Source: Candidatus Bathyarchaeia archaeon
Lineage (GTDB): Archaea > Thermoproteota > Bathyarchaeia > Bathyarchaeales > Bathycorpusculaceae
DNA length: 64,000 nt
Assembly: GCA_050010755.1 (NCBI GenBank)
Contig: JBEKKK010000001.1
Span: forward strand, 1,344,001 to 1,408,000
Reading direction: 5' to 3'
Within the stretch, counting starts at the first letter, position 1. Each line of letters opens with the position of its first letter. Positions 3,304 to 21,306 of this stretch are shown one piece after another. The translations under genes were made by a program, and so were the position numbers. The notes beneath the pieces were generated by a model. It did not search any database, was not told where the DNA came from, and saw only the letters and a program-made list of their open reading frames with translations.

Positions 3304-3531
3304 TTACGACGTGTTGAGGCCTCTCTCTTTTGTTGCGGCTTCGGTTTTGAGTTTGCGCAGCATGACCGAGGCTTCGTTGGCGGTGCTGGCTGAAGCCAGT
3401 GTCAATGCCTTTTGAAGTAGGATTGTCAAGCCACAGTGTGGACATGCCCTTGTCTTTTGGTCAGCTTTGGCGAGTAGAAGGCCTCCGCATCTGCTGCAAA
3501 CAACTACTAGCGTTGTAGCCATCGATGTCAC
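3304..3531 (-). CDS. Small zinc-ribbon protein (DUF1922-like)
   Basis: CSRCG...QKTRACPHCG. Confidence 0.75.
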   Translation of the reverse strand: MTSMATTLVVVCSRCGGLLLAKADQKTRACPHCGLTILLQKALTLASASTANEASVMLRKLKTEAATKERGLNTS

Positions 3532-3590
3532 TGATCGAAAGCCTTTTCCACGTTCGACTAGATAACGCTTAGTACTGAGAGGAAAGGGGC

Positions 3591-3959
3591 ATGAGCGACG
3601 AGCAAGAGGCCAAATCGAAATCGGCGTCGAGTCTGGTGCAGGCGGCGGTGCATTATTTCAAGAAGGACGGTTACAAGGTTGAAACGGACGCCACGACGTT
3701 TGAGGGTTTCAGCGGGGTCTCGAAAGTTTTTGATTTGATTGTTCAGAAGGGACGGGTTGAGCAGGGCGTCTGGGTTAGAGATTGGAACAGGACCATAGGG
3801 GTCAACGTGATTATAAACATTGACAAGGCCTCTGAGGATGTGGGGCTGGCCAGTCCCATCATTGTGGGGGAAAAATTCAGCGATCACGCAAAGTCTTATG
3901 CTAACCGAAGGAAGATCACGTTGCTCACGAAAAGGCAGATAACTCAGAGCCTTCGGTGA
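3591..3959 (+). CDS. Mrr-like restriction-endonuclease-fold protein
   Basis: YF...GYKVE...GFSG...FDLIV...FSDHAKSYA...ITLL pattern. Confidence 0.7.
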   Translation: MSDEQEAKSKSASSLVQAAVHYFKKDGYKVETDATTFEGFSGVSKVFDLIVQKGRVEQGVWVRDWNRTIGVNVIINIDKASEDVGLASPIIVGEKFSDHAKSYANRRKITLLTKRQITQSLR

Positions 3960-3965
3960 ACAGGG

Positions 3966-4556
3966 CTAGATTCTTAGGAACTCGTCGAGCCGACCTTCTT
4001 TTTCCAGTTTGCCTAGCCAATCAACAACGCCTATGCGGCACTTGTTGGGATCGGAGATCACTTCTAGTATCGCTCCGACGATGTCTTCTCCGCTCTTTCC
4101 TGTGAGGTCTAATTCGCATGTTTTTCCGTTTCCCACCGCCTTTATGGCATCCACGAGACACACGTCTAAGATTTCAGAGGCCAGGTTCTCCGTCATCTTG
4201 GGTTCAGAAAAGCCGCGCCGTCTCATAAACTCCCGCAACTCGAGAGGATCGCGCCTGAGCACGAACACGAGCGTGACAAGATTCTTTGGGACTACGTTGA
4301 CGGCGTAGTGCCCATCGACCACGACGTTTTCCTTGTCTGTTTTTTTGATTAGCTCGCGAATTCTTCTTGTCATCTTCGATTGGTTCACTATGACGGTGTC
4401 TCTTCTCTCATCTCTTCCCGAGGTCAGATGTTCTCGCAGAGCCAGGTCCGTCAGGTTGATGTACAAGGCATCAAGCTTGGCTTCAAGCAGACGTGCCGCC
4501 GAAGTCTTTCCAACACACGGCGTTCCGGTTATCAGGATAACGCGTTTAGACATCAT
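3966..4556 (-). CDS. Archaeal adenylate kinase (AK6/Fap7 type)
   Basis: ILITGTPCVGKT P-loop, VVDGH, ENL.SE; start placed at MMSKR rather than at the ORF-track start (4625). Confidence 0.92.
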   Translation of the reverse strand: MMSKRVILITGTPCVGKTSAARLLEAKLDALYINLTDLALREHLTSGRDERRDTVIVNQSKMTRRIRELIKKTDKENVVVDGHYAVNVVPKNLVTLVFVLRRDPLELREFMRRRGFSEPKMTENLASEILDVCLVDAIKAVGNGKTCELDLTGKSGEDIVGAILEVISDPNKCRIGVVDWLGKLEKEGRLDEFLRI

Positions 4557-4644
4557 CGAGCAAACCTCAACTCGCTCTATTGAAGCGTTGGGCAAAAAAG
4601 GGTTTCCAAAATTCTTATTGCACACCTGTGTGCACTTCTATCTT

Positions 4645-4964
4645 GGGCTGGCGAGTTGGTGTGTGGCTTTCGAGCCTAACATCTGAAAGGCTTGAGGAAA
4701 CTCCGCCCACGCGTAGAATTGCAACGCTCGAAAGGGCGTAAGGCGAGAGCCTTGGCTACGGAGCAGAAACGAAACGTCCGCTCGGCAAATGCCGATGACA
4801 CATGCTAAGTTGTCGAGAATGCCAAGCGTGAAACGGTGAAACGGCCGTCCTGCAAGTGGAAAGGGCAAACAGACGCTGATGAAGCATCTACCCGAAGCGC
4901 GGGTAGCCCGATTAGCCGAATGCCACAAAAAACAAAAGGCGGGTTACGGCCAACACGCCAGCCC
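4645..4964 (+). ncRNA. rnpB: RNase P RNA
   Basis: 5' GGGCTGGCG-A-GTTGGT pairs with 3' GCCAAC-A-CGCCAGCCC (P1). Conserved GAGGAAACTCC (4695-4705), GCAGAAAC, TGAAACGG and AACAAAAGGCGGGTTAC (P4 3' strand). About 320 nt. Confidence 0.93.
4940..4963 (+). repeat. attL core (3' end of rnpB)
   Basis: Identical to 13492-13515; extends to 28/29 with the upstream AAAG(G/A). Confidence 0.9.
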
Positions 4965-4981
4965 AAAATAAACCCCTTGGA

Positions 4982-5058
4982 CGTCATAAACAACAAAAGT
5001 TCCGTCATAAACAACAAAACCACCACCACAAACAGCCAAAATTCCGTCGTGAACAACA
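4982..5058 (+). repeat. Three phased direct repeats CGTC(A/G)T(A/G)AACAACA
   Basis: Copies start at 4982, 5003 and 5045 (spacing 21 and 42 bp). Confidence 0.8.
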
Positions 5059-6134
5059 TTACTTCCCCAGCCATAGAATATTGGCTCAACGAATTAGCCA
5101 CAAAAAGCGAAACAACCAAGGAACTCTACCTGAAAAACTTCAAGAAATTTCTAGAATTTACAAACAAAACAGCCGACGAACTACTAGAACAACGCCAAGA
5201 AAACCAAACCAGCACAAACCCAAAAATCCAACGACTAATCGAGAGTCAACTCATCAAGTTCATAGCCACCAAAAGGAACGAAGGATTGTCACCAGCAACA
5301 CTTCAAACATACTTCGCCTCAGTCCGCTCATTCTTTGAAATCCATTACTACCCGCTACGAATGAGGCGCGGAGACTACCCAAGTGGCGAAAGTTTAGGAG
5401 TCAAAGCAGCAAACAAAGAGAACATACTCAAAGCGATAGAAAACAAAGCTAACCGCAACAAAACCACCATAAAAGCCGCCATCCTATTCCTAAAAGACTC
5501 AGGCCTAAGAATCAGTGACGCACGACTATTCAACTATGGCGATGTGAAAGAACAACTAGAACGCGGAGACGAATTCATTGAACTAGCACGAATAACACAA
5601 AAACAAAAAACCATAGCGAAGCCATTCATAGGCCCCGAAGCAATCCACGCACTCAAAACCTACCTACAAGAAAGAGAGCACGGTTCTAGACGAGTCCCAC
5701 CCGAAAAACTAACAGACAAAAGTCCATTGTTCCGCACATGGGAATCAACCAAAATCCAACGAATCCCTCGCAACTCCTTCTCTTCACTCGTACGCCAAAC
5801 ATTCCTAAGAATCAACGCACAACACACCACCGCACACAGCCTGAGAAAATACCTCCAAACAAACTTGGAAGCCGCAGGCGTCAACACAAACTGGATAGAC
5901 CAAATCCTAGGTCACAAACTCATCAACAGCCGAGACGCATACAGCAAACCAACCGACGAACAACTGCGAGAAGCGTACACAAAAGCATACAAGTTCATAC
6001 AAGTCTATCCAGAGTTAGACACACCGAAACCACAAGCAAACACAACACAACTCGAGACTAACAAACCAACAATACCAACGCTACAAGAATTCCAATTCAC
6101 CGTAACAATAGAAGGAAAAGAATACAAATCATAG
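5049..6134 (+). CDS. Tyrosine recombinase / integrase
   Basis: SGLRISDA (R), TAHSLRK (HxxR), ILGHK (H), DAYSK (Y). The ORF-track start (4836) lies inside rnpB; in-frame GTG 5049 or TTG 4977 is more plausible. Confidence 0.93.
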   Translation: MNNITSPAIEYWLNELATKSETTKELYLKNFKKFLEFTNKTADELLEQRQENQTSTNPKIQRLIESQLIKFIATKRNEGLSPATLQTYFASVRSFFEIHYYPLRMRRGDYPSGESLGVKAANKENILKAIENKANRNKTTIKAAILFLKDSGLRISDARLFNYGDVKEQLERGDEFIELARITQKQKTIAKPFIGPEAIHALKTYLQEREHGSRRVPPEKLTDKSPLFRTWESTKIQRIPRNSFSSLVRQTFLRINAQHTTAHSLRKYLQTNLEAAGVNTNWIDQILGHKLINSRDAYSKPTDEQLREAYTKAYKFIQVYPELDTPKPQANTTQLETNKPTIPTLQEFQFTVTIEGKEYKS

Positions 6135-6148
6135 ACTAAAAGGGAGCG

Positions 6149-6583
6149 CTAAGACAATGGCTTGATTGAGAGCGCGACGTAGAAAGGATTCAAAGGGTTA
6201 GCGGAAGTCGTGTATATGGTTGTGACATTAAATTGTATTCCACCGTAAATAGAAGACTCTGAACCTACGTTATAAGATGCATTAAGATAAACTGGAAAAT
6301 TGAAAACGTTCTGGTTCTCAGGAAAAGCTGAATCATTAACGTATGAACTTGTTTCAACAGAAATCCAATTCGACTGGCCATACTGCCAATCGAAAGCATA
6401 GACTGTTCTTACGTTCTCTCTTTTATCAGTGTAAGAAGCAGGAACTCCAGAATAGACATTTAATTCAGTGTATCCTAGATTGGATTTTGAGAAGGGATGA
6501 GTAATTATTACACCAAGCAGGAATGCCACACATGCAATAACTATCACCCAAGCTATTATTCTGTTTCTATCCATCTTCCCCAA
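6149..6583 (-). CDS. Membrane-anchored hypothetical protein
   Basis: N-terminal TM helix followed by a beta-rich polar region. Confidence 0.7.
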   Translation of the reverse strand: MGKMDRNRIIAWVIVIACVAFLLGVIITHPFSKSNLGYTELNVYSGVPASYTDKRENVRTVYAFDWQYGQSNWISVETSSYVNDSAFPENQNVFNFPVYLNASYNVGSESSIYGGIQFNVTTIYTTSANPLNPFYVALSIKPLS

Positions 6584-6731
6584 TTCATCAAGCTATGTCC
6601 TTTAAAATAAACCTTTCACCATCATTCAACAAGTACGGGCGTGAAGATAACTTCTTTTTGGCGCGCGCTAAATCATAGCTCAGACACAATAAATCGCTAA
6701 ACATATATTCCTATAATTAGACGTTTTAACC

Positions 6732-7544
6732 ATGACTGATAACGCTGCTGAGGCAATATTAGACGATATGGAGAAGCAAGGTTTCCCACTTGAGATACGA
6801 GTAACCGAGATGTTAAAAGCCCATGGTTGGAGTGTCTACAATCAAGAACCCTACTTTGACAGAAATACAAACAAACAGAGAACAATAGACATCGAAGGCA
6901 TAAGAAGCATTGACTTACCTAAAGGAGAATGGGTATTTCAGGTACGGCTCATTATAGAATGCAAAAAATGCAGTAAACCATGGGTATTTTATGTTTCTGA
7001 TATAAGTAGAGATGAAATAAGAAACGAGCTTCCCTTTTACACCAAAATTTACTCTGACAGCTCAAACCAATTAGATTTTCCTAAAAACCAAATCCAGACC
7101 GATGACTACGTCCCTCAAATCTTGTTCAAAAAAGAGCTTGAGCAACTTATTTTTGAAAAATTAGCGCGTATTGCATATGAACCCTTTACAGATGGCAAAG
7201 GAAACAGCATTCGTAGAGCACGAACACAAGTCTGCAACGCAATCATAGACCTTAAGCGAGATCTAGCTCAAAGTATGGGAGTGGAAATTCCACATTATAT
7301 GCTGTTTAAACCTATAATCATTCTTGACGGTCAATTATACACATATCAAGAAGAGAACCTCATTAAGAAAAAGGGACTCTACTATTACGTAAGATTTTAT
7401 GATGAAACATTCATCATCGAAGTGGTGACTATAGGTTTTCTCAACGAATACCTCACAAAAATTGAGAACAATATCAATAACTTTCTGAGAACACAAGAAG
7501 CGCGCACACTACAAGCGATAGAAACAAAAAAGGCAGCCAACTAG
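6732..7544 (+). CDS. PD-(D/E)XK nuclease-fold protein
   Basis: GFPLE.RV...GW.V...YFD....RTIDI...LIIECKK...PWVF pattern. Confidence 0.7.
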   Translation: MTDNAAEAILDDMEKQGFPLEIRVTEMLKAHGWSVYNQEPYFDRNTNKQRTIDIEGIRSIDLPKGEWVFQVRLIIECKKCSKPWVFYVSDISRDEIRNELPFYTKIYSDSSNQLDFPKNQIQTDDYVPQILFKKELEQLIFEKLARIAYEPFTDGKGNSIRRARTQVCNAIIDLKRDLAQSMGVEIPHYMLFKPIIILDGQLYTYQEENLIKKKGLYYYVRFYDETFIIEVVTIGFLNEYLTKIENNINNFLRTQEARTLQAIETKKAAN

Positions 7545-7755
7545 AAAAGAAACAAAGCAACCAGCAGACCTGCTCAACTAACTTGCGAAAATGCTCACGG
7601 CCAAAGCATAAAACAACACTATCAACGCTCTAGCGCGGCTTTTGGCTCGCACTCGCTTCGCATCGTGCTCGCATCACCCACATTACGCGCGCCTAAGGAG
7701 CTCGTAGAAACGATTAAATAGGAAACAATTTAAGGTGAAATGGAGTGATAAAACC

Positions 7756-8796
7756 ATGAGCGGAGCGGAAGAGTCTAGAAAACAGAGACCCTTTCCAAGG
7801 AATACAGTCGAAGATGCCCTAAGAATTGCGAAAACAATTCTAGACCTTAACAATGGCAAACCCATGAAACGAATTTTTATTGCAGATCACTTGAAAATAA
7901 GACCCGATAGCACCAATTTCAAGTATTTGATTAGTGCCTCTTTTAGGTACGGTCTTACGCAAGGGAATGAGAAATCTGAATTCATCAGCCTGACACCCTT
8001 AGGCGAATCGATAGTGAGAGCAAAGGATGCAGAAAAGACGGCATTTCTCCAAGAGGCTGTTCAAAAGATACCTGTATTCCACAATTTCTATGAAAGGTAT
8101 CGAGATGCTAAACTGCCTACGGATGAGTATGCAAAGAAACTTCTAAAAGACGAGTTTCAGGTTCCCTCAGAGCATTTGGATGAATGCCTAAACATATTAA
8201 TCACGAATGGAAGATTCGCAGGACTAATAAGAGAAGTAGCAGGAGCCACTCGTGTTGTTTTTGAGACGGCTACTTCAGCTACTCCTGTAGTCCCGCAAGA
8301 GTCAGAAGCCCAAGGAGAAGAAGGAGCGGGAGAGGAAAAGGAAGAGAAAGCCGAGCTACTCAAGGAGCAAATCAAGAAGCCACGGGTATTCATTTCTCAC
8401 AGCAAAAACAAGAAAATAGTCGACCAGATAAAACAGATTTTGGATTTTGGACAGTTTGAATATGTAGTTGCAGAGGAAACAGAAACTACAGCGATTCCTA
8501 TTCCTGACAAAATCTTTGGATTGATGAGAGACTGTGATTGCGCAATAATAAATGTAAGCGCAGATGAGCAAGAGAAACGAGCCGATGAAACCTATGGAAT
8601 AAATCCCAACGTTCTCGTGGAAATTGGCGCCGCTTTCCTCAAGTATAACAAGAAAGTGATTTTACTCGTGGACAAGAGAATAAACTTGCCTTCGAATTTG
8701 CAAGGGCTATACCGAAGCGAGTATGAAGGCGATGAACTCACCTTTACCACGGCAATGAAATTACAAAAAGCACTCACGGATTTTAGGAAACTGTGA
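7756..8796 (+). CDS. Winged-helix-like N-terminal domain fused to a TIR-like (PF10137-type) domain
   Basis: C-terminal RVFISHS...AIINVSAD...NPNVLVEIGAA...LPSNLQG; N-terminal YGLT.G...ISLTPLG; acidic linker. Confidence 0.8.
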   Translation: MSGAEESRKQRPFPRNTVEDALRIAKTILDLNNGKPMKRIFIADHLKIRPDSTNFKYLISASFRYGLTQGNEKSEFISLTPLGESIVRAKDAEKTAFLQEAVQKIPVFHNFYERYRDAKLPTDEYAKKLLKDEFQVPSEHLDECLNILITNGRFAGLIREVAGATRVVFETATSATPVVPQESEAQGEEGAGEEKEEKAELLKEQIKKPRVFISHSKNKKIVDQIKQILDFGQFEYVVAEETETTAIPIPDKIFGLMRDCDCAIINVSADEQEKRADETYGINPNVLVEIGAAFLKYNKKVILLVDKRINLPSNLQGLYRSEYEGDELTFTTAMKLQKALTDFRKL

Positions 8797-8811
8797 TTGA
8801 AGGTTGAAAGA

Positions 8812-9354
8812 ATGTGGCATGAATATCCGATTCCGACAGATTTTGAGAACCAGAAAAGAATCATTAGGGCGTTGAGGGAATGGATAAAGCAACTTGAAGC
8901 TGACAACTTGATCTCTGGATTCGCGTTTAATCATTATTCCTCAAATCCTGAAGTGCCTGATGAACTTCGAGTCAGATTTCAATACTCTAATGAAAATAAC
9001 CGCGAGGGCGTAGAAAATCAATTAGAAACCGAAGTTAAAGAGATGCTACCGAATTATGTGATGCAAGAGAGGGAATGGGGCTCAGACACAACCGATAGGC
9101 ATATTCTCCAAGCCTACGAACTCGGAAGTAGATGGTCTTTTCTAGCTTGGGAACTAATCGAAAAGGGACGTTTTCCAGCGGAGTATTTCACGCGCCCAGA
9201 GTTCCAGTTCCATTTTAACCACGGAGTAATGAACTCTCTCGGTATTCCGAAAATCCCTGACGAACTAAACATTCACATAAACAACATAATGGATGCTACC
9301 AATTCGCGAACAAAAGAATCTCTAATAAGATGGTTGCAGGAACATCTTGCCTGA
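8812..9354 (+). CDS. Hypothetical protein, weak resemblance to the lantibiotic dehydratase C-terminal (Lant_dehydr_C) fold
   Basis: FAFNHYS...DELRVRF recalls FFIRY..PHLRLRF; gene directly follows the TIR gene. Confidence 0.55.
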   Translation: MWHEYPIPTDFENQKRIIRALREWIKQLEADNLISGFAFNHYSSNPEVPDELRVRFQYSNENNREGVENQLETEVKEMLPNYVMQEREWGSDTTDRHILQAYELGSRWSFLAWELIEKGRFPAEYFTRPEFQFHFNHGVMNSLGIPKIPDELNIHINNIMDATNSRTKESLIRWLQEHLA

Positions 9355-9522
9355 ACTCGACAATCCTTGGAATCCAATCCTTCCTTTCTCCCCACGCACC
9401 ATCTCCTTTTGCTGAAAAACTAATTATGGATTACTAGCGCGCGCCACCCAACAAACGAAAAACATTAAGCATACTCTCGCCAAAGAGGAATTAACAATAA
9501 CGACATCTGGTAGGTTACCAAA

Positions 9523-10254
9523 ATGACAATTGAGAATTGTGCATATTGCAGGGGAACAGGTAAAGATCCCAACACAGGCCTTATTAGCAAATTTAGGCCC
9601 TGTCCAGTTTGTAATGGGCACGGTGAGCGTACCATTGAGGTTCCCATAGACCAACTGAAGCACTGTCCTTATTGCAGTGGAACAGGTAAAGATCCCAACA
9701 CAGGCCTTATTAGCAATTATGAGCCCTGTCCAACTTGCGGAGGTTGGGGTCGAATTGCGAGATCTACATGCGATTCTTCTAAAAAGAAGGAAGAACCAAG
9801 TCCAGATTTGGGCAAGAGCAAACTTCAATTCTCAAATAGGATATTCATCGTTCATGGAAGAGACAGATTGCCAGCACTTGAACTCAAAGTGCTTGTTGAG
9901 GACAAGTACCCGATAGAAGCTATCCTTTTAGAAGAAAAGGCTCATCAAGGCAAGACTCTTGTTGAGAAATTGGAGAAATACTCTGATGTGAATTATGCGT
10001 TCATAATCATCACTCCAGATGACGTCGGATCATTGAAAGGCGAGCCTCTCAAAGAAAGGGGGCGCCAAAATGTTATTTTTGAATGGGGAGTTTTTCTAGG
10101 CAAAATAGGAAGGAGTAACACGTGCCTTCTAATCAAAGGAGATGGGGAAATTCCTTCAGATTTGCACGGAGTCGGATTCTACAGATTCAATGAGAGCGTA
10201 AAAGAGTGTTTTCTAGACATAGATAATGAACTCAAAGGAGCCAAAATAGTCTAG
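9523..10254 (+). CDS. DnaJ-type cysteine-rich zinc finger fused to a TIR-like (CAP12/PycTIR family) domain
   Basis: Four CxxCxGxG motifs; RIFIVHGRD...GKTLVEKLE...TPDDVG...RQNVIFEWG. Confidence 0.88.
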   Translation: MTIENCAYCRGTGKDPNTGLISKFRPCPVCNGHGERTIEVPIDQLKHCPYCSGTGKDPNTGLISNYEPCPTCGGWGRIARSTCDSSKKKEEPSPDLGKSKLQFSNRIFIVHGRDRLPALELKVLVEDKYPIEAILLEEKAHQGKTLVEKLEKYSDVNYAFIIITPDDVGSLKGEPLKERGRQNVIFEWGVFLGKIGRSNTCLLIKGDGEIPSDLHGVGFYRFNESVKECFLDIDNELKGAKIV

Positions 10255-10477
10255 CGCGCGCTCAAGTCACTTCGCTCCTTTCGCCGAAACTAAACCGTGC
10301 ACTATCCAAGAAATAGACGGAATCAGACTATGCAGAAAACGCAAATGAACTCAAACCTCCTCTTTCTCTAATTACCAAAACAGAGCGTCAGTTAGTCTCG
10401 TTGCCATCTGGTGGCAATCAGAAGGTTTTAAGAACTAGTTCCAAGGATGCTATAAGTGAGTTCTAGGAGACAATAGC

Positions 10478-10882
10478 ATGGAAAAAGAACTGCTCTTCGA
10501 AGCCAAAGAGAACGCCACCTCATTTAACATCAAGGAATTCAGCCCAGAAGGCGCGAAGATCGACATCACCCTTACGGGAAAAATCAACGGAAAGGTGAAA
10601 GGGACAATCATAACCACACACACTGTCCTCATGAAGCCTGACGGCACATCGAAAATCGATCACAGATCAGTCATCTTCAGCAACGGCGAGCCAATCTTCG
10701 TAATGGGAACTGGCATGGGGAAAATCGTGAACCCCGCTCCTGTGCGGGACGTTGAGGAAGACCTGACATTCCAGACACCATCTCAAAAACTGGCATATCT
10801 CAATACGACTAAGGGCTGGTCAAAGGGTCCCTTCAACCCCGAAACGGGCGAATACAACTTCAAGGTCTACGCCGTCAAGTAA
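10478..10882 (+). CDS. Hypothetical beta-rich protein
   Basis: 134-aa ORF with upstream AGGAG. Confidence 0.7.
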   Translation: MEKELLFEAKENATSFNIKEFSPEGAKIDITLTGKINGKVKGTIITTHTVLMKPDGTSKIDHRSVIFSNGEPIFVMGTGMGKIVNPAPVRDVEEDLTFQTPSQKLAYLNTTKGWSKGPFNPETGEYNFKVYAVK

Positions 10883-11142
10883 CGCGCAACACAACTTTTC
10901 AAAAAACGCAAATAACCCTCCTTTTTCTATGACCAACAGAACCAACACACTTCATCGCGCGCGCTAATAGCATTTTAAACAAGAATCAATTTGGCTCGTG
11001 AGCCTTCGGCTCACTCGCCCGTTCCAGACGATACGCCAAAAATGCCGATACGCTCAAAAACTGCTTGCACAAGTCTAAGCGAGGCGCGCGCTAGTTACCC
11101 TAATGTTTATCCTTTTGACAGATCATTAGTAGAAGTGAATAA

Positions 11143-11692
11143 TATGGAAAAGAAAGCTGTACTTATAACAACCTTGTGCGCTATGATTGTAGTTGTCATC
11201 TTTTTCCAGTTCATCCTGTTCAACACTTCGCTACCAAAAGACTACACGACATATTACAGCGAGTTCAACAAGACTCCCACGCTTGCATACAACTACTCCT
11301 TGTCTCCTCCAGTTTCCGTATACCAAGCGTTGTTGATAGCTCTAAATAGCCGATACTGGAACCGAGAATCCCTCGAAAATTTCAGCGTCTACATCGAGCT
11401 TGACTACTGGGCATACTTTACGAACCTTTCCCCTCCGAACGGAGTGTTGGAATTGGGTGGCGCAACTTACAGGTCGACTGGCAAACCCATAAGCGGAACG
11501 GCTATAATAAATACGGTGACACAACCGCCCGCGGATTGGTTACCTCAACAAATCGACAACATCACTTACCGATACGTCTGGACAATCAACGTCCAATATG
11601 TGATCCATCCCAATGATAAGATTCCTATTGTGCCTAGCTTGCCTTTTCAGTTTCAAGTTGACGCCGCAACCGCAGAATTAATTGAGCCATAA
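11143..11692 (+). CDS. Membrane-anchored hypothetical protein with a PepSY-like C-terminus
   Basis: MEKK plus TM helix; ends with FQVDAATAELI. Confidence 0.65.
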
Positions 11693-11960
11693 ACACGTTA
11701 AGCGTGCACGAAACGAAAAATCAAGAAAACGCCCAAGTCCTCGGCGACATAAGCCTTTCCCCTTCGCTCCGCTCAGGGTGCGCCTCCTTCGCAACTTTTT
11801 ACTGATGCAAAATATCCCACAAGGTCGCGCGCGCTACAAAAAAAGGCGAAATGCCAATCGAACGCCAAAGGAACAGCAACAATAACGCCACAAACAACCC
11901 GCTATACTCTCGCTAACAGGAACGAATTAACTAACACACGCTACAACAACAGAACACACA

Positions 11961-12034
11961 ACAGAACAAACAACGACAGAACAAACAACGACAGAACAAA
12001 CAACGACAGAACAAACAACGACAGAACAAACAAC
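11961..12034 (+). repeat. Tandem repeat, 15-bp unit ACAGAACAAACAACG, about 5 copies
   Basis: Perfect units at 11961, 11976, 11991 and 12006, partial unit at 12021, degenerate flanks. Confidence 0.95.
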
Positions 12035-12233
12035 AAACAACAGTAAACAACAGAACGCTATAAACACCCGCCGTTTTAACGCTCAGTAAAGTAACGCGGA
12101 AATCCAACAGAGCAACAAGCCGCCCGCACAGCGCGCGCTACTGACAGCTCAAGCAAGCCATCAACATCAACAAACCAAGCAAAGCTAGAAGCATTAGATG
12201 CTTCGCAAACTAATTTAGGAACAACCATGCGCG

Positions 12234-13031
12234 CTATTTCTTCGAATTGTGTATTAGATAATTGACAACAAAACCAAGTGCCATGAATGTAAACCCAACA
12301 GCATCTACCAATATACCTATCGTTTGGTAAGGATATACTCGGCGCGGAATCGATAAAACATCGGCGTGACTATATTGCATCTCGAAATAGGATGCCGCAA
12401 CCAAGCCAATCGCCAAAAGAAATATCCCCAAAATCAACAATACGTTGCTTCTCGCTAGCGCCCGCGCGCTGGTTGCCTCATTAACTAAGAAGGCACACAG
12501 AAACATTGCTATTGCAGGGTAAACAAGGTAGTAGCCTAGTTGATATCCTGCGAAAAATATATTGCCCGCCTGTATGAGGGCGCTCACGCACGTCATCAGA
12601 ACGACAACTAGTAGGCTAAGAAGAACTGGTGCAAGCAGTAATGTTTTTCTTTTGAATTTGATTGAAACCAAGCCTAGGACTAACGTGAGAAGTTGAGCTA
12701 TAAACATCATTGGTATAAACACCGACGCTGAATCAAAAGTAGATTCAACGTAATTGCTCGCCCAGTAATTATAGAACCATACCGTCTGCGCTAGCGTGCG
12801 CGAGCCAGAACTATAGAAAAAGAATTGGGTGGCCCTAGTCATGTACGACGAGTAATAGTTTGACCAGTTTTGACCAGACACAAAGCCATCAGACACCTGG
12901 ACACCATACCATTGAAGATAGAAGAACGGCAAAATGAAAGAAAATAGAAAAAGGAGGCATCCCACAACTGTGAATGTCTTTCTAAGGGTACCGCCAGTCC
13001 AATGTCCAACTGTTTTCTCAAGATAACTCAA
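12234..13031 (-). CDS. Multi-pass membrane protein
   Basis: About 6 hydrophobic segments; LPFF...GYYL pattern. Confidence 0.75.
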   Translation of the reverse strand: MSYLEKTVGHWTGGTLRKTFTVVGCLLFLFSFILPFFYLQWYGVQVSDGFVSGQNWSNYYSSYMTRATQFFFYSSGSRTLAQTVWFYNYWASNYVESTFDSASVFIPMMFIAQLLTLVLGLVSIKFKRKTLLLAPVLLSLLVVVLMTCVSALIQAGNIFFAGYQLGYYLVYPAIAMFLCAFLVNEATSARALARSNVLLILGIFLLAIGLVAASYFEMQYSHADVLSIPRRVYPYQTIGILVDAVGFTFMALGFVVNYLIHNSKK

Positions 13032-13283
13032 GTTAATCTAAAAGAAATATTACTAGAGCACCTTAAAAGGGCTATTGTTAAGAACAGCATTGCCAAAATC
13101 ATGTCATGCGCGCGCTCTTCGCATTCTTTTATCTTCTTTTCACTTATCCCCAAACCCACCAGATGGAATGATTGGGCGTATATTCATAAGCCGTTACAAG
13201 CGCACGCTCCCCGCAGTCCTAAAAAGTTGCTCAGTCGGGAAAGGCATATTGTCGCCTCGTCAAAGACGAATTAGGAATGTGGG

Positions 13284-13526
13284 TTGAATTACATGACAAA
13301 CCAAACAAACGAAACCCAAAAAAGAACATGTAAAGAAATAGAACACGGGAGACTGAGGACAGAAATAGAAATTCCCAAACTCCCAGAAAGGGCAAAAACT
13401 ATGAATGAAGAAACCAAACCCGAAACCAAGGATCAACCACAAACCAAAAACCAACAAGAAACACCAAAACCAGAATTACTTGTACTAAAGACGGGTTACG
13501 GCCAACACGCCAGCCTTTTTCGCTAA
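13284..13526 (+). CDS. Small hydrophilic ORF running through attR
   Basis: 80-aa ORF; the att core encodes its GYGQHAS segment; start uncertain (13293 or 13401). Confidence 0.4.
   Translation: MNYMTNQTNETQKRTCKEIEHGRLRTEIEIPKLPERAKTMNEETKPETKDQPQTKNQQETPKPELLVLKTGYGQHASLFR
13492..13515 (+). repeat. attR core (duplicated rnpB 3' end)
   Basis: Identical to 4940-4963 and followed by TTTTT. Confidence 0.9.
13516..13520 (+). terminator. Oligo-T tract, probably the original rnpB terminator
   Basis: TTTTT directly after the duplicated rnpB 3' end. Confidence 0.45.
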
Positions 13527-13761
13527 CCCGCCTCATTTTTACTTCCTCTTCGCGCGCGCTAATCTTCCCATTCTTCGATAATATTTACCAAACGGTTTCA
13601 CCTTGGACTATGTTGGCGCAGGAGTTTAAGGGAATTCTGGCACTGATAAAGCACAGTGTGCTTTAGAAGGCTGTACAAATATTGCAAGTTCGACCGCGCG
13701 CGTTTCAGAAATACTATTATCTGGGTTTGATCTGTCCTTTTCCAACTGGGAGATATGTGCT

Positions 13762-14034
13762 ATGAATATTGGGGTTTGGGAAGTTGGGGTACGCGTTGGC
13801 TTGGTGTTGGCCACCGGCTTGTTGTTTGCAGTCATGTTTTCGGCTTATCGCCGCGCAAAAGGCCGCAAAATGCTGTTGATCACTACAGGCTTTGGAGTGT
13901 TCTTTGTAGATGGATTGATCTCACTGCCTGAGCTAGTCAACGAAACGTATGCGATGGCCATGACTGAAGAAATGCATATGCTCATTCAGATAATAGGCCT
14001 TGTATTCATTTTGATTGGTATCTTGCAGGAATAG
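13762..14034 (+). CDS. Small three-TM membrane protein
   Basis: SAYRR...LLITTGFGVF pattern; immediately upstream of a wHTH regulator. Confidence 0.75.
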   Translation: MNIGVWEVGVRVGLVLATGLLFAVMFSAYRRAKGRKMLLITTGFGVFFVDGLISLPELVNETYAMAMTEEMHMLIQIIGLVFILIGILQE

Positions 14035-14040
14035 TCCGAC

Positions 14041-14598
14041 ATGTTCAAGAACGAGATTCTGGAGAACGAAAGAAGACGCAAGATATACGCACTGATAGAG
14101 GCCAATCCAAGCGTTCATCTTAGGGAACTGCAGAGGATGATGAATATGCCTCTGGCCACGTTGGAGTATCATCTGGATTACATGTTGCGTAAGAAAGTAC
14201 TTTTCGCCGAATCGGATGCGTATCACAAGCGATATTACACGAAGCCTGTTGACGCGGCTGACAAGAAGGTACTTTGTTCACTTAGACAGACCAGAATGCG
14301 GGAAATCATCCTCATAGTCCTCGCAAACACCAAACCCAAATACCAGTTTCTATCAGACTGCATGAAAATTCCTCACTCAACTCTCTCATTTTACCTCAAA
14401 CACCTGATCGACGACAATATACTGGCGAAAGAAAGAATCGGCTACGACACATTTTACACCGTACGGGACGAAGATCGAATCGTGAGGTTGTTGGTAGCCT
14501 ACAAGTCAAGTTTTCTGGACAAGATCGTGGACAGAACTCTGAAAACATGGATAGAAACGCGATTCCGCAGTGAACCTGAAAACGCTCAGGCGACCTAG
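14041..14598 (+). CDS. Archaeal double winged-helix transcriptional regulator
   Basis: RRKIY.LI..NP.VHLREL.R...TLEYHL, and a second STLSFYLK.L. Confidence 0.88.
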   Translation: MFKNEILENERRRKIYALIEANPSVHLRELQRMMNMPLATLEYHLDYMLRKKVLFAESDAYHKRYYTKPVDAADKKVLCSLRQTRMREIILIVLANTKPKYQFLSDCMKIPHSTLSFYLKHLIDDNILAKERIGYDTFYTVRDEDRIVRLLVAYKSSFLDKIVDRTLKTWIETRFRSEPENAQAT

Positions 14599-14700
14599 CC
14601 CAGCATTTGTACTAGTCCCATCCAACATTCGTCCGACTCTTCTTATAAAGGCGCGCGCTTGTGTGGTGACAATTAAGGAAACGTATTTAGAGAATAGGGG

Positions 14701-15807
14701 GTGAAAAAGGTGGAAAGAAAAATCTTGGCAATTTTGAGCATTGCAGTTGCAATCTTCGCGGTATTTGCAGTGGCGAGTGTAGCAAGTGCAGGACTTAAAA
14801 ATGTTGGAGCCATCTACACCATCGATAATGCCGCAGCAGGAAACAACGTCCTATACTACAGCAGAGCAGCAGACGGATCAATCACATATGTTAGTTCTTT
14901 CTCGACTAATGGGTTGGGAACAGGAACGAAACTTGCAAGCCAAGGCGCAGTGGTCCTTACAGAAGATGGGCGCTTCTTGCTTGTAGTTGACGCTGGAAGC
15001 AACGAAATCTCAGTTTTCAAGGTGCAAAGCAACGGATTGACTTACTCGAGTAAGGCGGGTTCCAATGGGACTATGCCGATAAGCTTAACCGTCTACGAGA
15101 ACTGGGTGTATGTGCTGGATGCTGGCGGATCTGGAAACATAGCAGGATTCACGCTGAGCAAATCTGGCGTATTGACCTACATACCCGGCTCGAATCAGCC
15201 TCTAAGCGGTGCATCTACACCTTCGCCTGAGCAGATAGGGTTCAGCCCTGACGGAAACGTGTTAGTCGTAACAGAAAAAGGCACTAACACCATCGATACG
15301 TACATGGTCGGCACTAATGGAGTAGCCAGCGCCCCGACAACTCATGCCTCCAATGCTTTTGGACCATACGGATTTGCCTTCACTGATGATGACAAACTGG
15401 TTCTTAGCGAAGCAGCAAACAATACATTGTCTTCATACATCATTTCTGACCAAGGTGACTTGAGAACTATCAGCGGTGCTATGCCAACTTTTGGCAATGC
15501 ACCCTGCTGGGTCACAATAAATGATAAGGGCAGCTTTGCCTACACGACCAACGCGCATGGGGGAACTATATCGACGTTCTCAATCTCGTGGAATGGGGGC
15601 ATAACCTTGCTAAGTTCTGTAGCTGCGACAATCAATGTTCCGGCACTTGACATGGCTTTCAGCCATCATAGTCAGTTCCTTTACGTGCTCAATGGCAACA
15701 GCCCTGCAGGCATCACAGGATTCAAAGTGTACCCAGATGGAAGTTTGTCGCAGGTAACATCAGTGAGCGGAATCGCTGGATCTGCTGCAGGATTGGCGGC
15801 ATCTTAA
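14701..15807 (+). CDS. Secreted lactonase-family beta-propeller protein
   Basis: Signal peptide; repeated DGRFLLVVDAGSNEISVF-type blades. Confidence 0.85.
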   Translation: MKKVERKILAILSIAVAIFAVFAVASVASAGLKNVGAIYTIDNAAAGNNVLYYSRAADGSITYVSSFSTNGLGTGTKLASQGAVVLTEDGRFLLVVDAGSNEISVFKVQSNGLTYSSKAGSNGTMPISLTVYENWVYVLDAGGSGNIAGFTLSKSGVLTYIPGSNQPLSGASTPSPEQIGFSPDGNVLVVTEKGTNTIDTYMVGTNGVASAPTTHASNAFGPYGFAFTDDDKLVLSEAANNTLSSYIISDQGDLRTISGAMPTFGNAPCWVTINDKGSFAYTTNAHGGTISTFSISWNGGITLLSSVAATINVPALDMAFSHHSQFLYVLNGNSPAGITGFKVYPDGSLSQVTSVSGIAGSAAGLAAS

Positions 15808-16119
15808 GAGCTGCAAAAACAAAAAATCTAACTCTCTCCTCTTTTTTAGCATATGGGAAAGATGTAAGACATAGTGCGTCAATGTTTTGTTGATATAGCT
15901 GTTCATTATTCTCTCAAGCTTCTGGATTCTGACGCGCTCTCGAGTGTTGCTAAAGGAGATGCAGAACGTTTTCTTTGAAAGCTTCAAGCGTTGGAGTTGT
16001 TGGTGCACATTGGAAGATTATGTAAGAGATTCCAGTTTCGTCTTTCTCGAGGCGCGCGCGTTTTGCATACGTTGACTCACCAGAAAGCTTATGCATCAAT
16101 CCCGTGATTTTGATACTAA

Positions 16120-16599
16120 GTGATTTGTTTGGCGAAAGAAGAACTGAAACCACTTGAAGTTGTGCCATATGTCGAGCTGAATAAATATCTAGGTAAATGG
16201 TATGAGATTGCACATCTTCCCTTTAGGTTTGAAAATGGTTGTACTGACATAACAGCGACTTACAGCTTATCTAAAGATGGCAACGTTTCCGTACTCAATG
16301 AATGCCTGAGAGATGGCAAGCTGAAACAGGCAAATGGGAAGGCAAAAGTGGTTGACAAAAATTCTGGAGCAAAACTTAAGGTAACATTCTTCTGGCCGTT
16401 CTCTGCTGATTATTGGATTATAGATCTAGGAAATGACTACGACTACGCCGTTGTAGGGACACCAAACCGCAAGTATCTATGGATATTGAGCAGAACCCCC
16501 CAAATGGATGACAACCTATTTTCCCAATTAGTTGAATCTGTAAAGTCAAAAGGTTTCGATATTAACAAACTGATCAAAACCAGCCATAAAGGAAACTGA
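16120..16599 (+). CDS. blc: Lipocalin (Blc family)
   Basis: YLGKWYEIA, YWIIDL..DY.YAVVG, YLWILSRTP. Confidence 0.92.
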   Translation: MICLAKEELKPLEVVPYVELNKYLGKWYEIAHLPFRFENGCTDITATYSLSKDGNVSVLNECLRDGKLKQANGKAKVVDKNSGAKLKVTFFWPFSADYWIIDLGNDYDYAVVGTPNRKYLWILSRTPQMDDNLFSQLVESVKSKGFDINKLIKTSHKGN

Positions 16600-16633
16600 T
16601 TTCATAATCGTAGCGCGCGCTTAAAGTAATTCT

Positions 16634-17089
16634 TTACTCGCTCTGCCTGCGATGAAGCGAGGTCAAGATGAGCATAAGCCCCGTGCAGCAACACAGGAAA
16701 CCTTTCAAGATCCAAGTTGAATAAAACAGGTTGTCCAAGGCAGCGAATTTAGCCACTTCTGGAATAATAAACCTAGTTGCGTCCTCGCTCCGATAAGCTA
16801 GGGCAAGAAAGATAGTAAACAATCCGTATAGGATGACAATGAAAGAGAGACGGAAAATCACGTTTGCTTCTTTATCTGTTCCTTCTCGCTTTAGATAGCC
16901 ATTGAGATAAAAACCTATTCCAATTGCTAAGAGCGCCATCATTGATACGTTCCAAGCTATACCGGGTTGAGGGGACTGAAGATACAGATCGAGTTGCCAA
17001 CCCGCCAACGGCAAAACCACTGTTACAGCACAGAGGGAAAAGACAGGCGTTAGCAGAATCAGATTTGAACCGGCAAGAAACTGTCGCAA
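16634..17089 (-). CDS. Four-TM hypothetical membrane protein
   Basis: Four hydrophobic segments. Confidence 0.6.
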   Translation of the reverse strand: MRQFLAGSNLILLTPVFSLCAVTVVLPLAGWQLDLYLQSPQPGIAWNVSMMALLAIGIGFYLNGYLKREGTDKEANVIFRLSFIVILYGLFTIFLALAYRSEDATRFIIPEVAKFAALDNLFYSTWILKGFLCCCTGLMLILTSLHRRQSE

Positions 17090-17267
17090 CTCTTTGCCCC
17101 ATCAATCTTCTGCCGCCTGCCGCTTTAAAGGTTTGTCGCGCGCGCTAAAATCGAAAAAACCGAAATAAATAACGCGCCCATCAGTGCGCGCTAGGCAAGT
17201 TTTCAGAGATAGAGCGCAGCGTTCAAGACGTTAGAAAGGACATTCAAGAACTGAAGAAAACAATCTC

Positions 17268-17786
17268 TTAAGTATGCGCAGTTTGATTTGTGTCATTTTT
17301 CTTACACTCCTTGCAACGCATAGGTTTTATGGGTTTGAAAGGAACTTCAAATAGCTTTCCACAATTACTGCACACAGTGTGATACATTGTCTTAGGAGCT
17401 GTTGAAAAATAGGTTTTGACTCTTTCTGTCGAGAAGTATGCGAAGGAGAAGAAGGGGTACAGGACAAGGTACGCTATTATCGGAATGAAGATGGTAGACG
17501 GGCCGACCCAGTAGACTAGCCAGATGTCGAAGAGGATGAGCAGAACCCAAGAGGCCATCGACAGAAAATAGCCTGCGCGCATTCCTAGAAATATGAGAAC
17601 AGTATCCGCAATGAACAATGTGCCGAACGCGGCGGTCAGCCCTATGAGCGTAAGCACTGGCGTTGAGGGTTCTCCTACCTGTGCCCATACAGAAAGAAAG
17701 AAAATTGCGATTAACCATGCTCCAATAGCGGTTAACACGGTGAACAGGCACACCAGAGTGACCCCAACTGGCTGGACTCTCTCCAC
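17268..17786 (-). CDS. Four-TM membrane protein with a C-terminal CxxC..CxxC zinc ribbon
   Basis: QPVGVTL...VKTYF followed by CSNCGKLFEVPFKP....CKEC. Confidence 0.75.
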   Translation of the reverse strand: MERVQPVGVTLVCLFTVLTAIGAWLIAIFFLSVWAQVGEPSTPVLTLIGLTAAFGTLFIADTVLIFLGMRAGYFLSMASWVLLILFDIWLVYWVGPSTIFIPIIAYLVLYPFFSFAYFSTERVKTYFSTAPKTMYHTVCSNCGKLFEVPFKPIKPMRCKECKKNDTNQTAHT

Positions 17787-18210
17787 AGCGTCACCAAAAG
17801 TTACATTTGTTTCCGAAGATAAAAACTTTAAGCGACAGCCAGAAAAAAAGTTTTTCAGAACAAGGCTGGACGGAGACTGTGTTTTGCGAATGAAGCTGCC
17901 AGCAGGCTCTGTTCAGACTCGAAACTCACTCATAACAACATGTAAACTCACTGTACAGTTGCCCATCTGCAGGACGATTTCAGGATTAACCCGTTTAACG
18001 ATGCGGGAGAACGCAGTAACCGCTTCGGTCCAGCCCGCGCTCACAACTGCCAAAACTCTCCAGACTCATCAACAAGCGCACAGGAGCCGAGAAGATGATT
18101 GCCGTCAACACAGCAGACCACGTTAAACACGCCTTGCCACTTCACATCCCATTTTCGAAAAAATTCATTCAACACGCCAATTATTTAACTCACCCGCGCG
18201 CACTGCGATT

Positions 18211-18786
18211 CTACGTTGGCAGAGGGGGAAAAGGTTGGGGTGGTATTATTGCCTCAACGGGCTTTGGCACGCGCTCTCTAGTTAGTGCGGCAAACATCAT
18301 AATCGCGGCAACCAAGGCCAGCCAAAAACCGAAAGATAGGTACGACGAGTAATCCATGGATATTCCAAGGTAGCCGTATGAACCACTGGAGAACAAACCT
18401 GCTCCTGTTGGGATCCCCGTAACCAAAGACCCATTTGAAATCTGGCTTTGCAATCCCGCAGCGAATATAATAATCGAAAACAAAGCAAGTATCCCGCCAA
18501 GTGAAAGCACAATCCTTCTTCCATTAGCAATGACACTACCTGCCAAACCCAGCAAGCCGCCTAACACCACAAATGCCAAGGCAATCGAACAATACCAAGG
18601 AAGATTCGTTGAAGCGGATAATGATATACCTGTTATGGTCACTCTCGTTTGGTATAGGTACAGAGCAACCTGATCAGAGAGGTTCATTCCCATGCCTGAA
18701 CTCGAAATGCCCATAGCCCACCACGGTAACACCAAGCTAATGAAAGCCAATATGCCTCCGATAAAACCTGAATAGTTAATTCTCAA
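18211..18786 (-). CDS. Four-TM membrane protein
   Basis: LPWW...GFWLAL pattern; Pro-rich tail. Confidence 0.75.
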   Translation of the reverse strand: MRINYSGFIGGILAFISLVLPWWAMGISSSGMGMNLSDQVALYLYQTRVTITGISLSASTNLPWYCSIALAFVVLGGLLGLAGSVIANGRRIVLSLGGILALFSIIIFAAGLQSQISNGSLVTGIPTGAGLFSSGSYGYLGISMDYSSYLSFGFWLALVAAIMMFAALTRERVPKPVEAIIPPQPFPPLPT

Positions 18787-18881
18787 ATTGCGCCCCCCAC
18801 TCTACAATGTCGCGCGCGCTGTCCTCGATTTTAATCGAATTCATTTTCATATAAAACTTTCTAAGGCGCGCGCTACGAAGC

Positions 18882-19349
18882 TCAACTGGCGCTCTTAATC
18901 GGTCTCTTCACGGCAACATAGAGTTGTAGAACAGACGCTATCGAGGTGATAATTGCGCCAGTTAGAGTGACGTAAGCACCGTAGAGAATCGAGTATATAT
19001 TAAAAGGCCATTCGAGTCCCAGCCTTGGCTCGATTATGCGCAGGCTTGGAAGCGCAATCCAAGCAGCTGTGATAGAAAGAGTGGCCAAGCTTCCACATAA
19101 AACTAGTAATCCTGTGTACCATCTAGGTCTTAGGATGAAAACTGCTGAAAGAAATAGTGTCAAGATACAAGTCAGCAGGATATAGGCTGCCATTTTAATG
19201 TATGGGATACCTGGCCTGGAAACAGGAACATAGTTATACAATAGAATCGTTCCTACATATCCCCATGGCATATAGCAACCTGCTAGGCTGACAGAAACTC
19301 CAAAAAGAACTATAACCGTGATTAACATCCGACGCCTCAATTCAAACAA
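18882..19349 (-). CDS. Four-TM membrane protein
   Basis: MPWG...YGAYVTL pattern. Confidence 0.7.
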   Translation of the reverse strand: MFELRRRMLITVIVLFGVSVSLAGCYMPWGYVGTILLYNYVPVSRPGIPYIKMAAYILLTCILTLFLSAVFILRPRWYTGLLVLCGSLATLSITAAWIALPSLRIIEPRLGLEWPFNIYSILYGAYVTLTGAIITSIASVLQLYVAVKRPIKSAS

Positions 19350-19396
19350 TGGACATCAGTCCCATCTTGGAAACGAAGTCTGATGAGCATATAGCT

Positions 19397-19885: not shown

Positions 19886-19941
19886 CTTGCGTCACCAGCT
19901 CGCGACACTTTGGTTCATATAAACAGATTGAGCAGGAAGAA

Positions 19942-19984
19942 GTTAACTCCTGTGTTATTGACCATTAAGTCAATGATAATTGAC
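19942..19984. promoter_or_regulatory. 43-bp element GTTAAYTCCTG..TTGAC-N6-GTCAA-N6-TTGAC, copy 1
   Basis: Homologous to 24823-24865 and 26903-26945; upstream of a minus-strand gene. Confidence 0.7.
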
Positions 19985-20024
19985 CAACACGCCAACCAAC
20001 ACGCCAAAGGCGCGCTATCTCTTT

Positions 20025-21020: not shown

Positions 21021-21306
21021 TTTTATGCCATCAAAAAAACTATTGAGACCCGTGGATCTATTTATGTGATTACTTGTTTCAGCGCGTGCAGAAACAGTGG
21101 ATGCGTTTCCTAGCCGACCAAACTGAAGATGAGTTGACCCTTCACAGCATCAACTCCTAATTCCAGTCTCAGAACGTCCAAGTTCACTATTAGATATTAG
21201 GCGCGCGCGTGAATTATGAGAACGCGTGTTGCTGCGGCACTACAGTCACACAGGCTTAAATATCGTGCACATTATTCTTGTTATCAGGTGATTTGGTTTG
21301 TTGTTC

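Follow-up and report, generated by a model that had tools for sequence, protein, structure and literature searches.

A probable array of small integrative islands at the RNase P RNA gene's 3′ end in a Bathyarchaeia genome

Bathyarchaeia are an abundant, uncultivated class of archaea for which, to our knowledge, no genetic system exists. Here we describe a 64,000-nt stretch from the genome of a Candidatus Bathyarchaeia archaeon (GCA_050010755.1, contig JBEKKK010000001.1, positions 1,344,001 to 1,408,000 of the forward strand; hereafter the window, whose numbering is used throughout). In it, the gene for RNase P RNA (rnpB) is followed by a tyrosine integrase gene, by cargo that includes two proteins with TIR domains and by a second copy of the 3′ end of rnpB itself. 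An earlier note on this DNA, made from the letters alone, had taken rnpB for the attachment (att) site of an archaeal integrative element. Our analysis makes it very probable that positions 4940–13515 are a collapsed array of small islands, which site-specific tyrosine recombinases inserted into the 3′ end of the single-copy rnpB gene.

The rnpB gene is intact on the forward strand at 4651–4963, a span given by an nhmmer profile built from relatives. The archaeal RNase P model, which the note had named as a check, recognises the gene: RF00373 (RNaseP_arch) matches 4651–4958 over its full length (model positions 1–288) with 196.9 bits against a gathering cut-off of 84 (E = 4e-57). This is the sole Rfam match of the window, in which no tRNA or tmRNA was found, and the 2.19-Mb, 93%-complete assembly holds one rnpB, as expected of the single-copy gene that the note had assumed. 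The final nucleotides of the gene lie inside the attL core (4940–4963, forward strand), the 24 nt that it has in common with attR. By the structure line of the Rfam alignment, this core spans the 3′ strand of helix P1 and the end of the conserved region before it, which we take to be the P4-3′ region. Read by eye, P1 pairing is perfect at the window's rnpB (GGGCUGGCG with CGCCAGCCC).

Repeat and nhmmer searches place the second copy, the displaced rnpB 3′ end or attR core, at 13492–13515 on the forward strand, directly followed by TTTTT. The note had reported this exact recurrence, and the searches bear it out: the 24-mer has exactly two forward-strand sites in the window, allowing up to 2 mismatches adds none, and 0 of 100 dinucleotide shuffles contain a match. 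Looser searches for further cores in the window (up to 7 mismatches, sub-cores, nhmmer at E ≤ 100) returned only a chance-like 13-mer at 19985. The GC content drops from 0.50–0.52 left of rnpB to 0.37–0.47 within the interval. An attempt to locate the crossover by comparing distal with proximal cores was abandoned. The differences between them cluster at positions 1–2, 8–10 and 21–24, and we claim no crossover point because pairing to the P1 5′ strand is poorer for distal than for proximal copies, which makes drift of an unused copy inseparable from exchange history.

Both junctions are real features of the organism's DNA. Contigs from other public runs span them with zero differences (X2 record 5, 4934–9582; X2 record 8, 12206–15500; X4 record 16, 13242–14151), so the attL and attR junctions are not an assembly artefact. 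Among related genomes, 7 of 37 rnpB-bearing contigs end inside rnpB or at most 140 nt past its 3′ end. Such frequent breaks in contigs of metagenome-assembled genomes (MAGs) could be taken as a sign that the island was joined to rnpB at the repeat by mis-assembly or mis-binning; they are also the pattern that a strain-variable junction would be expected to leave. A chimera is extremely unlikely given the contigs of two other studies that cross attL and attR without differences, and given that dozens of independent assemblies, a complete chromosome (locus L092) among them, show this architecture too.

The gene that follows rnpB encodes a 361-aa tyrosine integrase, starting from GTG at 5049 (5049–6134, forward strand), and we call its type family B. 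Its open reading frame (ORF) is intact and starts 85 nt after the left core, which lies upstream of it; the ORF (5049–6131) matches PF00589 at 9e-16, and its residues R154, H263-x-x-R266, H289 and Y298 are unchanged in all 24 homologs aligned with it. The tyrosine recombinase with intact R, HxxR, H and Y residues that the note had seen just after the left copy is thus confirmed. A longer ORF (4836–6134, 432 aa) extends back into rnpB, and this call is an annotation artefact: gene callers lengthen integrase ORFs through the rnpB 3′ end because the A-rich arm in between lacks stops. Among 120 homologs listed, 8 are called with an ORF that opens with the translated rnpB 3′ end (P0001, P0008, P0013, P0035, P0047, P0052, P0062 and P0089, with starts such as ..GGLRPT(R/H)QP.. 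or ..AGY..H..).

The integrase-side arm (P′; 4964–5058, forward strand) runs from the core to 10 nt inside the integrase ORF and consists of four 21-nt direct repeats with the consensus CGTCATAAACAACAAAAATTC, which are candidate arm-type or regulatory sites. Its longest T run is 2. Only 1 of 17 family-B spacers, and not the window's, has a T run of at least 4, compared with 11 of 25 unoccupied rnpB flanks, although runs of at least 5 occur in only 5 of those 25, and we regard the contrast as suggestive, not decisive. Because family-B arms lack T runs, rnpB transcription may run on into the integrase gene, a read-through that we propose from the DNA sequence.

The integrase is followed by an ORF of 144 aa on the reverse strand (6149–6583) and one of 270 aa on the forward strand (6732–7544), neither with a family in Pfam, PADLOC, NCBIfam or PHROGs. 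Next on the forward strand is a 353-aa protein (7735–8796) that combines an N-terminal DUF7226/AAA_assoc_C region with a C-terminal CAP12/Pycsar-type TIR domain; its coding stretch 7735–8793 matches PF10137 at 7e-17 and, weakly, the PADLOC model PDC-S35 (TIR effector) at 3e-09. After a 185-aa ORF without a Pfam family (8797–9354, forward) comes a 243-aa protein (9523–10254, forward) that joins a DnaJ-type CxxCxGxG zinc finger to a TIR domain, matching PF10137 at 3.5e-30, PF00684 at 3.6e-09 and, over 9523–10251, PDC-S35 at 2e-48. A relative that is 58% identical to the zinc-finger protein is carried by an island in G002, a genome of the same genus. PDC-S35 is a candidate single-gene TIR defence system in PADLOC, and the two TIR proteins probably act in defence. 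No CBASS or Pycsar cyclase or other partner was found in the island. Scans of the 12 island ORFs with Pfam, PADLOC, NCBIfam and PHROGs agree with the earlier note that no replication or virion gene is present; 7 of the 12 match no family in these collections.

Further along, the interval contains pieces of a different kind of integrase. The integrases of seven relatives form a type that we call family A, and 10304–10348 (forward strand) is what is left of a family-A integrase gene, its final 14 codons with the stop (..IQEIDGIRLCRKRK*), recognised by DNA and protein comparison: over 54 nt of DNA it is 89% identical to the 3′ end of the integrase gene of the same-genus genome G004, and the protein comparison gives 93% over 14 aa. 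Beyond a 134-aa ORF without a Pfam family (10478–10882, forward) lies a second stump (10892–10915, forward), comprising the last 7 codons and stop of another family-A integrase gene (QLFKKRK*). By DNA comparison, this stump is 84% identical over 57 nt to G002; G021 and G003 match too, and the trailing sequence is as found after such genes there. A decayed internal core at 10881–10897 was considered and rejected, as the stretch reads as an integrase C-terminus. The remaining DNA (10991–13274) belongs to one or more older family-A-type elements and holds four ORFs without a family, at 10991–11692, 11682–11885 and 13002–13274 on the forward and 12234–13031 on the reverse strand. In the last 1.8 kb, 11735–12139 and 13199–13517 share 87–91% identity with the right end of a G003 island (island 1), whose integrase is of family-A type.

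Directly left of attR, the far arm (P; 13468–13491, forward strand) carries GAATTACTTGTACTAAAGA, a diverged copy of a ATTACTAAGGCT motif. Of 25 distal cores, drawn from both integrase families, 14 have the motif, whereas 119 of 20,000 random sites do; the window copy is just beyond the 3-mismatch limit. A seemingly conserved mini-ORF across attR (13284–13526) was also considered; its frame, compared by eye, differs among loci, and we treat the stretch as a DNA motif instead.

The earlier note had described a single 8,552-bp island, which the two family-A stumps contradict. At least two or three elements make up the 8,552 bp, because the rnpB-proximal module adjoins the 3′ stumps of two other integrase genes. 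From these remnants, the interval is best read as a collapsed array, in which a family-B module abuts what is left of one or two family-A elements. A single intact element of 8.55 kb, with one integrase, one cargo and one att pair and mobile as a unit, would fit the intact integrase and the two cores, identical at 24 of 24 positions with nothing core-like between them. It is nevertheless unlikely, given two stumps of the other integrase family inside it, a right 1.8 kb that matches an island with the other integrase type, and a metagenomic population (run X5, below) that has the right part without the left 5.3 kb.

Two kinds of repeat stand out within the older part. A-rich tandem repeats occupy 11943–12056 (a 15-nt unit, ACAACAACAGAACAA, 7.9 copies) and 13411–13472 (an 18-nt unit, 3.3 copies); the length of the former differs among metagenome contigs, with a 10-nt deletion in X9. 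A hairpin-forming 34 nt at 11005–11038 (CTCGTGAGCC TTCG GGCTCAC..) has 88–95% identical copies in islands of G002 (twice), G003, G021 and G004, and is a frequent joint in metagenome contigs of several runs.

In related genomes the arrangement recurs. Our relatives sample comprises 41 genomes, 37 of them with rnpB; the window's genus is represented by G000 (the window's genome), G002, G003 and G004, and the 77%-complete G001 has no rnpB match. An integrase gene directly follows rnpB in all four same-genus genomes with rnpB. Two of them, G002 and G003, each carry four direct copies of their own rnpB 3′ end (the end of the gene plus three) over 19–30 kb, and these series are tandem island arrays. 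In G002 an integrase gene stands after cores 1 and 4, in G003 after cores 1, 3 and 4, those at core 4 being frameshifted or interrupted by stops. Among the cargo of these arrays are a TIR protein, a Cas4-like nuclease, an HD protein, a DNA methylase, HEPN and DUF5343 proteins and an MFS transporter.

Across the wider sample, an integrase ORF starts at or overlaps the rnpB end in 7 of the 30 relatives with at least 1.1 kb downstream (G000, G002, G003, G004, G021, G023 and G030). Two further genomes show partial genes: an integrase N-terminus after rnpB and then the contig end in G024, and a 66-aa integrase fragment in G017. G030 comes from a different family within the order. Its own rnpB end, unlike the window core in sequence, recurs exactly over 25 nt at a site 4.9 kb downstream, and an integrase and an AAA_15/AAA_21 ATPase are enclosed. 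Unoccupied rnpB genes precede housekeeping genes (for example Tsr3, TtuA and TFE), and the integrase is therefore not a conserved neighbour of rnpB.

Some loci in the sample depart from this layout. G021 has a second rnpB (locus L096, G021:C1:258500-262500) that scores 83.5 bits against the cut-off of 84, with the relatives' profile covering only its positions 81–311; it has an exact core, a family-A integrase 51 nt downstream and a different contig from the intact rnpB. In G020 (L094, the same as L073, on C1), a 93-nt rnpB 3′ fragment is accompanied by a family-B integrase and a distal core, and the full rnpB is on a different contig. Here, rnpB arrays seem to have been moved or split by rearrangement.

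To see how widely the site is used we also took an even sample of the class: 151 genomes, 109 with rnpB, from which 110 loci of 107 genomes were examined, 102 of them with at least 600 nt downstream. Co-oriented integrases directly follow rnpB at 9 of the 102 loci (G000, G030, G117, G131, G133, G134, G140, G151 and G154), with integrases of families f1, f6, f7 and f24, and integrase fragments at 2 (G089 and G165). Among the other co-oriented ORFs adjoining rnpB, none of 27 is an integrase. Use of the rnpB site is thus widespread but sparse, and it is densest in the window's genus.

These counts bear on the idea that the integrase is an Xer-like housekeeping neighbour of rnpB and the 24-nt repeat a local duplication unrelated to integration. 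Both integrase families do match the archaeal XerA model NF040815 weakly, family B with 73.5 and family A with 78.4 bits, but the NCBIfam equivalog cut-off is 220 and neither family is XerA. Such a gene stands at only 9 of the 102 class loci. With variable cargo, four-core arrays, the repetition of each host's own core variant and the GC drop added, a housekeeping origin is very improbable.

The two integrase families are deeply diverged. The seven relatives' integrases are 28–93% identical to each other and have no significant BLASTP match to the window's (best E 0.067). Compared profile to profile, families A and B align with 97% probability (E = 5e-11) at 17% identity, with a common C-terminal module. 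At least two such families use the same core.

Family B has 271 database homologs at E ≤ 1e-10. We surveyed one genome per species, giving 27 loci, all in Bathyarchaeia or Thermoproteota MAGs. At 16 loci, the integrase has rnpB, complete or truncated by the beginning of the contig, ending 30–117 nt upstream; at 4 (L073, L085, L083 and L079), an rnpB 3′ fragment or core lies upstream; at 2, an integrase fragment lies beside a core (L092, on the complete chromosome, and L093); and 5 have no core. The homologs, whose surroundings the note had proposed to inspect, therefore directly follow rnpB, or a 3′ fragment or core of it, at 20 of 27 loci, and a tRNA or tmRNA at none of the 27. Distal cores were found downstream at 10 loci, in nine of them 3–9 kb from the proximal core. 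By Pfam, none of 42 ORFs from eight further family-B islands gives a virion or replication match, and their recognisable cargo is defence-like (ThsB-type TIR, AAA_15/21 ATPases, PLD nuclease, DUF6602). We found no family-B relatives in IMG/VR contigs and no terminal overlap, as a circular form would have, in the small family-B contigs L069, L075, L077, L078 and L084. A novel virus or plasmid backbone behind the islands, many of whose ORFs match nothing, is still conceivable. Within family B, a subgroup of 45–51% identity (L078, L081, L082 and L084, four of the five loci that lack a core) has no rnpB core and instead a TATA-like motif, TT(T/A)ATATAAGGGGGCTTTTG, some 60–70 nt before the gene; this subgroup may have a different target or show the element in a different state.

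Family A is large, with many paralogs per genome, and its eight best-scoring matches are all at rnpB or a core. Paralogs away from rnpB (L100, L101 and L102 in G010, G001 and G022; L097 and L098) form groups with conserved upstream sequence, one of which (..CCGTCATGAGTTCCTCATCTGTATAATCAGACTGGGACGGC..) matches no Rfam family and another of which lies at an apparent protein-gene 3′ end. Family-A subfamilies appear to differ in target.

The duplicated 3′ end, the 20 homolog loci and the repeat arrays in related genomes strongly support the earlier note's claim that rnpB is the attachment site. Gene, repeat, integrase, stumps and the recurrence of the arrangement in relatives are all directly observed, and from here we infer an order of events in which the family-B integrase made the attL junction. 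Each element would bring its own P-core-P′, the core copying the last ~24 nt of the host rnpB, and the integrase would exchange strands somewhere within these 24 nt. At attL, rnpB would be left complete with a tail supplied by the element; at attR, the original tail would be displaced, beside the T-run that probably ends the native gene. Newcomers would enter at a core and push older elements away from rnpB, as the decay of the most distant integrases in the G002 and G003 arrays agrees with, giving tandem arrays that internal deletions then erode. In the window, the rnpB-proximal module (4964 to ~10300: arm repeats, family-B integrase and two TIR proteins) would be the latest arrival, and the distal 3.2 kb the leftover of one or two older elements whose family-A integrases were cut to 3′ stumps, with the cores and integrase bodies between modules presumably deleted.

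Several observations weigh against this reading. No genome or contig examined has rnpB joined straight to the sequence after 13515, and class-wide occupancy of rnpB is only ~9%. Lower-scoring family-A members stand at a tRNA-Thr (G040) and at protein-gene ends. In a tree of 15 family-A sequences, the rnpB label needs 3 changes, and the rnpB-associated integrases form a single group in 0 of 200 bootstrap trees, although the starred branches do not exclude one origin; the core-1 integrases of G002 and G003 sit on a very long branch. Because the label needs three changes, rnpB use within family A may have arisen or been lost more than once. The family-B module also has no far arm of its own, so that a mobile unit would need a family-A-type arm for a family-B integrase. 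No excision joint (4963 to 13516) or circle joint appears among the 15 listed of 18 joints, assembled contigs being prone to drop rare forms.

Evidence from strains belongs here as well. In run X5, a population at ~200x matches 3500–4926 and 10368–15500 with 1–8 differences per contig, and no contig falls on 5104–10316. In one X5 contig, 4963 is linked to 10899 across unknown letters, and 1,129 letters of the contig come before its match at 10368; the short side of this joint is 20 letters, and the joint was matched at 90% likeness, a setting prone to repeats and other organisms. The run weakly suggests a near-identical strain that has the older element with its own integrase and lacks the family-B module.

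These points also bear on whether the array is still mobile. Islands may have integrated at rnpB and left a fixed fossil, a composite that no longer excises and whose integrase either survives as a relic or was taken over by the host. The lack of an excision or circle joint among those listed, the missing far arm of the proximal module and the degraded integrases in the G002 and G003 arrays are what such a fossil would leave. Against it stand the still identical cores, the intact integrase ORF and catalytic residues and, weakly, a near-identical strain that differs in exactly the family-B module; the far-arm motif is moreover common to both families, so a heterologous arm may serve. We consider a fossil possible but doubtful, and the unit in the collapsed array can presumably still excise.

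A further difficulty for the collapsed array lies at its right end. The flank after attR (13516–13545, forward strand) consists of T5 and then AACCCGCCT, complementary to AGGCGGGTT of the core start, and resembles the integrase-side arms of family-A elements. Position 13515 is perhaps not the original end, and the array may once have continued rightward. The right flank 13516–21100 is barely conserved in the genus, with any match in 2 of 4 genomes; synteny in G002 and G004 resumes with window 59–62 kb, inverted. No integrase remnants were found right of 13515 besides the arm-like 30 nt.

Other traces in the flank are of the same kind. A reverse-strand ORF at 18211–18786 (window 18196–18873) has 78% protein identity to the gene beside the integrase of G003 island 1, and window 28531–28835 shares 86% identity with sequence close to where G002 island 2 ends. 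Because of these matches and the poor conservation of 13516–21100, the sequence suggests older mobile DNA right of attR. The 10-mer GCGCGCGCTA has 13 window sites where 0.08 are expected, all within 6661–28249 and mostly between ORFs. Genome-wide in G000 it occurs 129 times, against 9 for a reversed control, in clusters such as C1 945–968 kb and the start of C2 beside an integrase. The 10-mer may tag DNA that is mobile or variable, or serve as a regulatory site, and its distribution hints at a variable region reaching ~28 kb. The ends of contig C2 carry two similar integrase genes in opposite orientation (G000:C2:210-1019 and C2:199558-200367), 28–30% identical to the window's, which may be a repeat that broke the assembly.

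A short sequence is found after many rnpB genes as well. Some 10–15 nt downstream of them stands AACCCGCC(T), the complement of (A)GGCGGGTT at the att core start, both in apparently native trailers and in family-A integrase-side arms (window 13516–13545, G002 and G003 just after rnpB, G015 and L092). It could be part of the native rnpB trailer copied by elements, or a scar of old elements.

Beyond the collapsed array itself, we tentatively suggest a wider role for the site. In Bathyarchaeia, the rnpB gene might be a dedicated docking site for small defence-cargo islands, at which at least two integrase lineages of 17% identity share a core and a far-arm motif, making their modules exchangeable and stackable. 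In family-B elements, a T-poor arm of phased 21-nt repeats would then take the place of the T-run after rnpB and expose the integrase to read-through from the strong rnpB promoter, so that both the expression of the integrase and the maturation of the RNase P RNA 3′ end would depend on the state of integration. This is a possibility that we hold well short of likely.

Through many independent examples, a ribozyme gene joins the short list of structural-RNA landing sites, so far tRNA and tmRNA. For Bathyarchaeia, a conserved single-copy attB with two cognate integrase families could serve as integration tools. For annotation, the region 3′ of rnpB is a predictable spot for defence genes at which MAG contigs often break, and gene callers yield chimeric integrase ORFs that include the translated rnpB 3′ end (the 432-aa window call and 7 further database proteins). 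The arrangement also raises the question of how RNase P RNA terminates and matures once its native trailer has been replaced.

Among known systems, the closest in layout are genomic islands and prophages at the 3′ ends of tRNA and tmRNA genes (Islander-type islands; PMC4383910). In these, a tyrosine integrase likewise adjoins the target, a copy of the target 3′ end restores the gene and the displaced fragment forms the far direct repeat; tandem arrays at one site and variable cargo, often defence genes, are further likenesses. In contrast, the target here is the ~310-nt ribozyme gene rnpB and not a tRNA or tmRNA, and the core is the end of the P4-3′ region with the P1 3′ strand, not an anticodon or T-loop. 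Integrated elements of Thaumarchaeota (Krupovic et al. 2019, PMC6563490) are, as excerpted, similarly small, att-bounded and tandem at one site, many of them cryptic cargo elements without virion genes. Their targets are given as tRNA genes (57%), protein genes and intergenic sites, and the terms ‘RNase P’ and ‘rnpB’ are absent from the main text as available. The integrases of SSV-type (‘suicidal’) elements (Badel et al. 2020, PMC7253208, in excerpt) are also archaeal tyrosine recombinases of integrative elements, but SSV integration splits the integrase gene, which contains attP, whereas here the core ends 85 nt upstream of an intact ORF. The dusA-specific integrases (PMC4482086, in excerpt) are alike in that a family is almost always found at one conserved gene and the site is predictable from the integrase. 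Theirs is the 5′ end of a bacterial protein gene; here it is an archaeal RNA gene, used by two families of 17% identity with a common core and far-arm motif. The cargo has parallels in the TIR effectors of CAP12/Pycsar and PDC-S35 type, to which the 243-aa protein is linked by its PDC-S35 and PF10137 matches, but the island proteins differ in their N-terminal parts, a DnaJ-type zinc finger and a DUF7226 region. A large 2026 provirus survey (PMC13626063, in excerpt) assigns 13.5% of RNA targets to unspecified ‘ncRNAs’, and its supplements may list rnpB. In the accessible full-text literature, including papers on archaeal and Bathyarchaeia mobile elements and with supplements outside its scope, we found no description of rnpB as an att site. 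We rate rnpB targeting as a variation on the tRNA/tmRNA-type integration strategy, new here.

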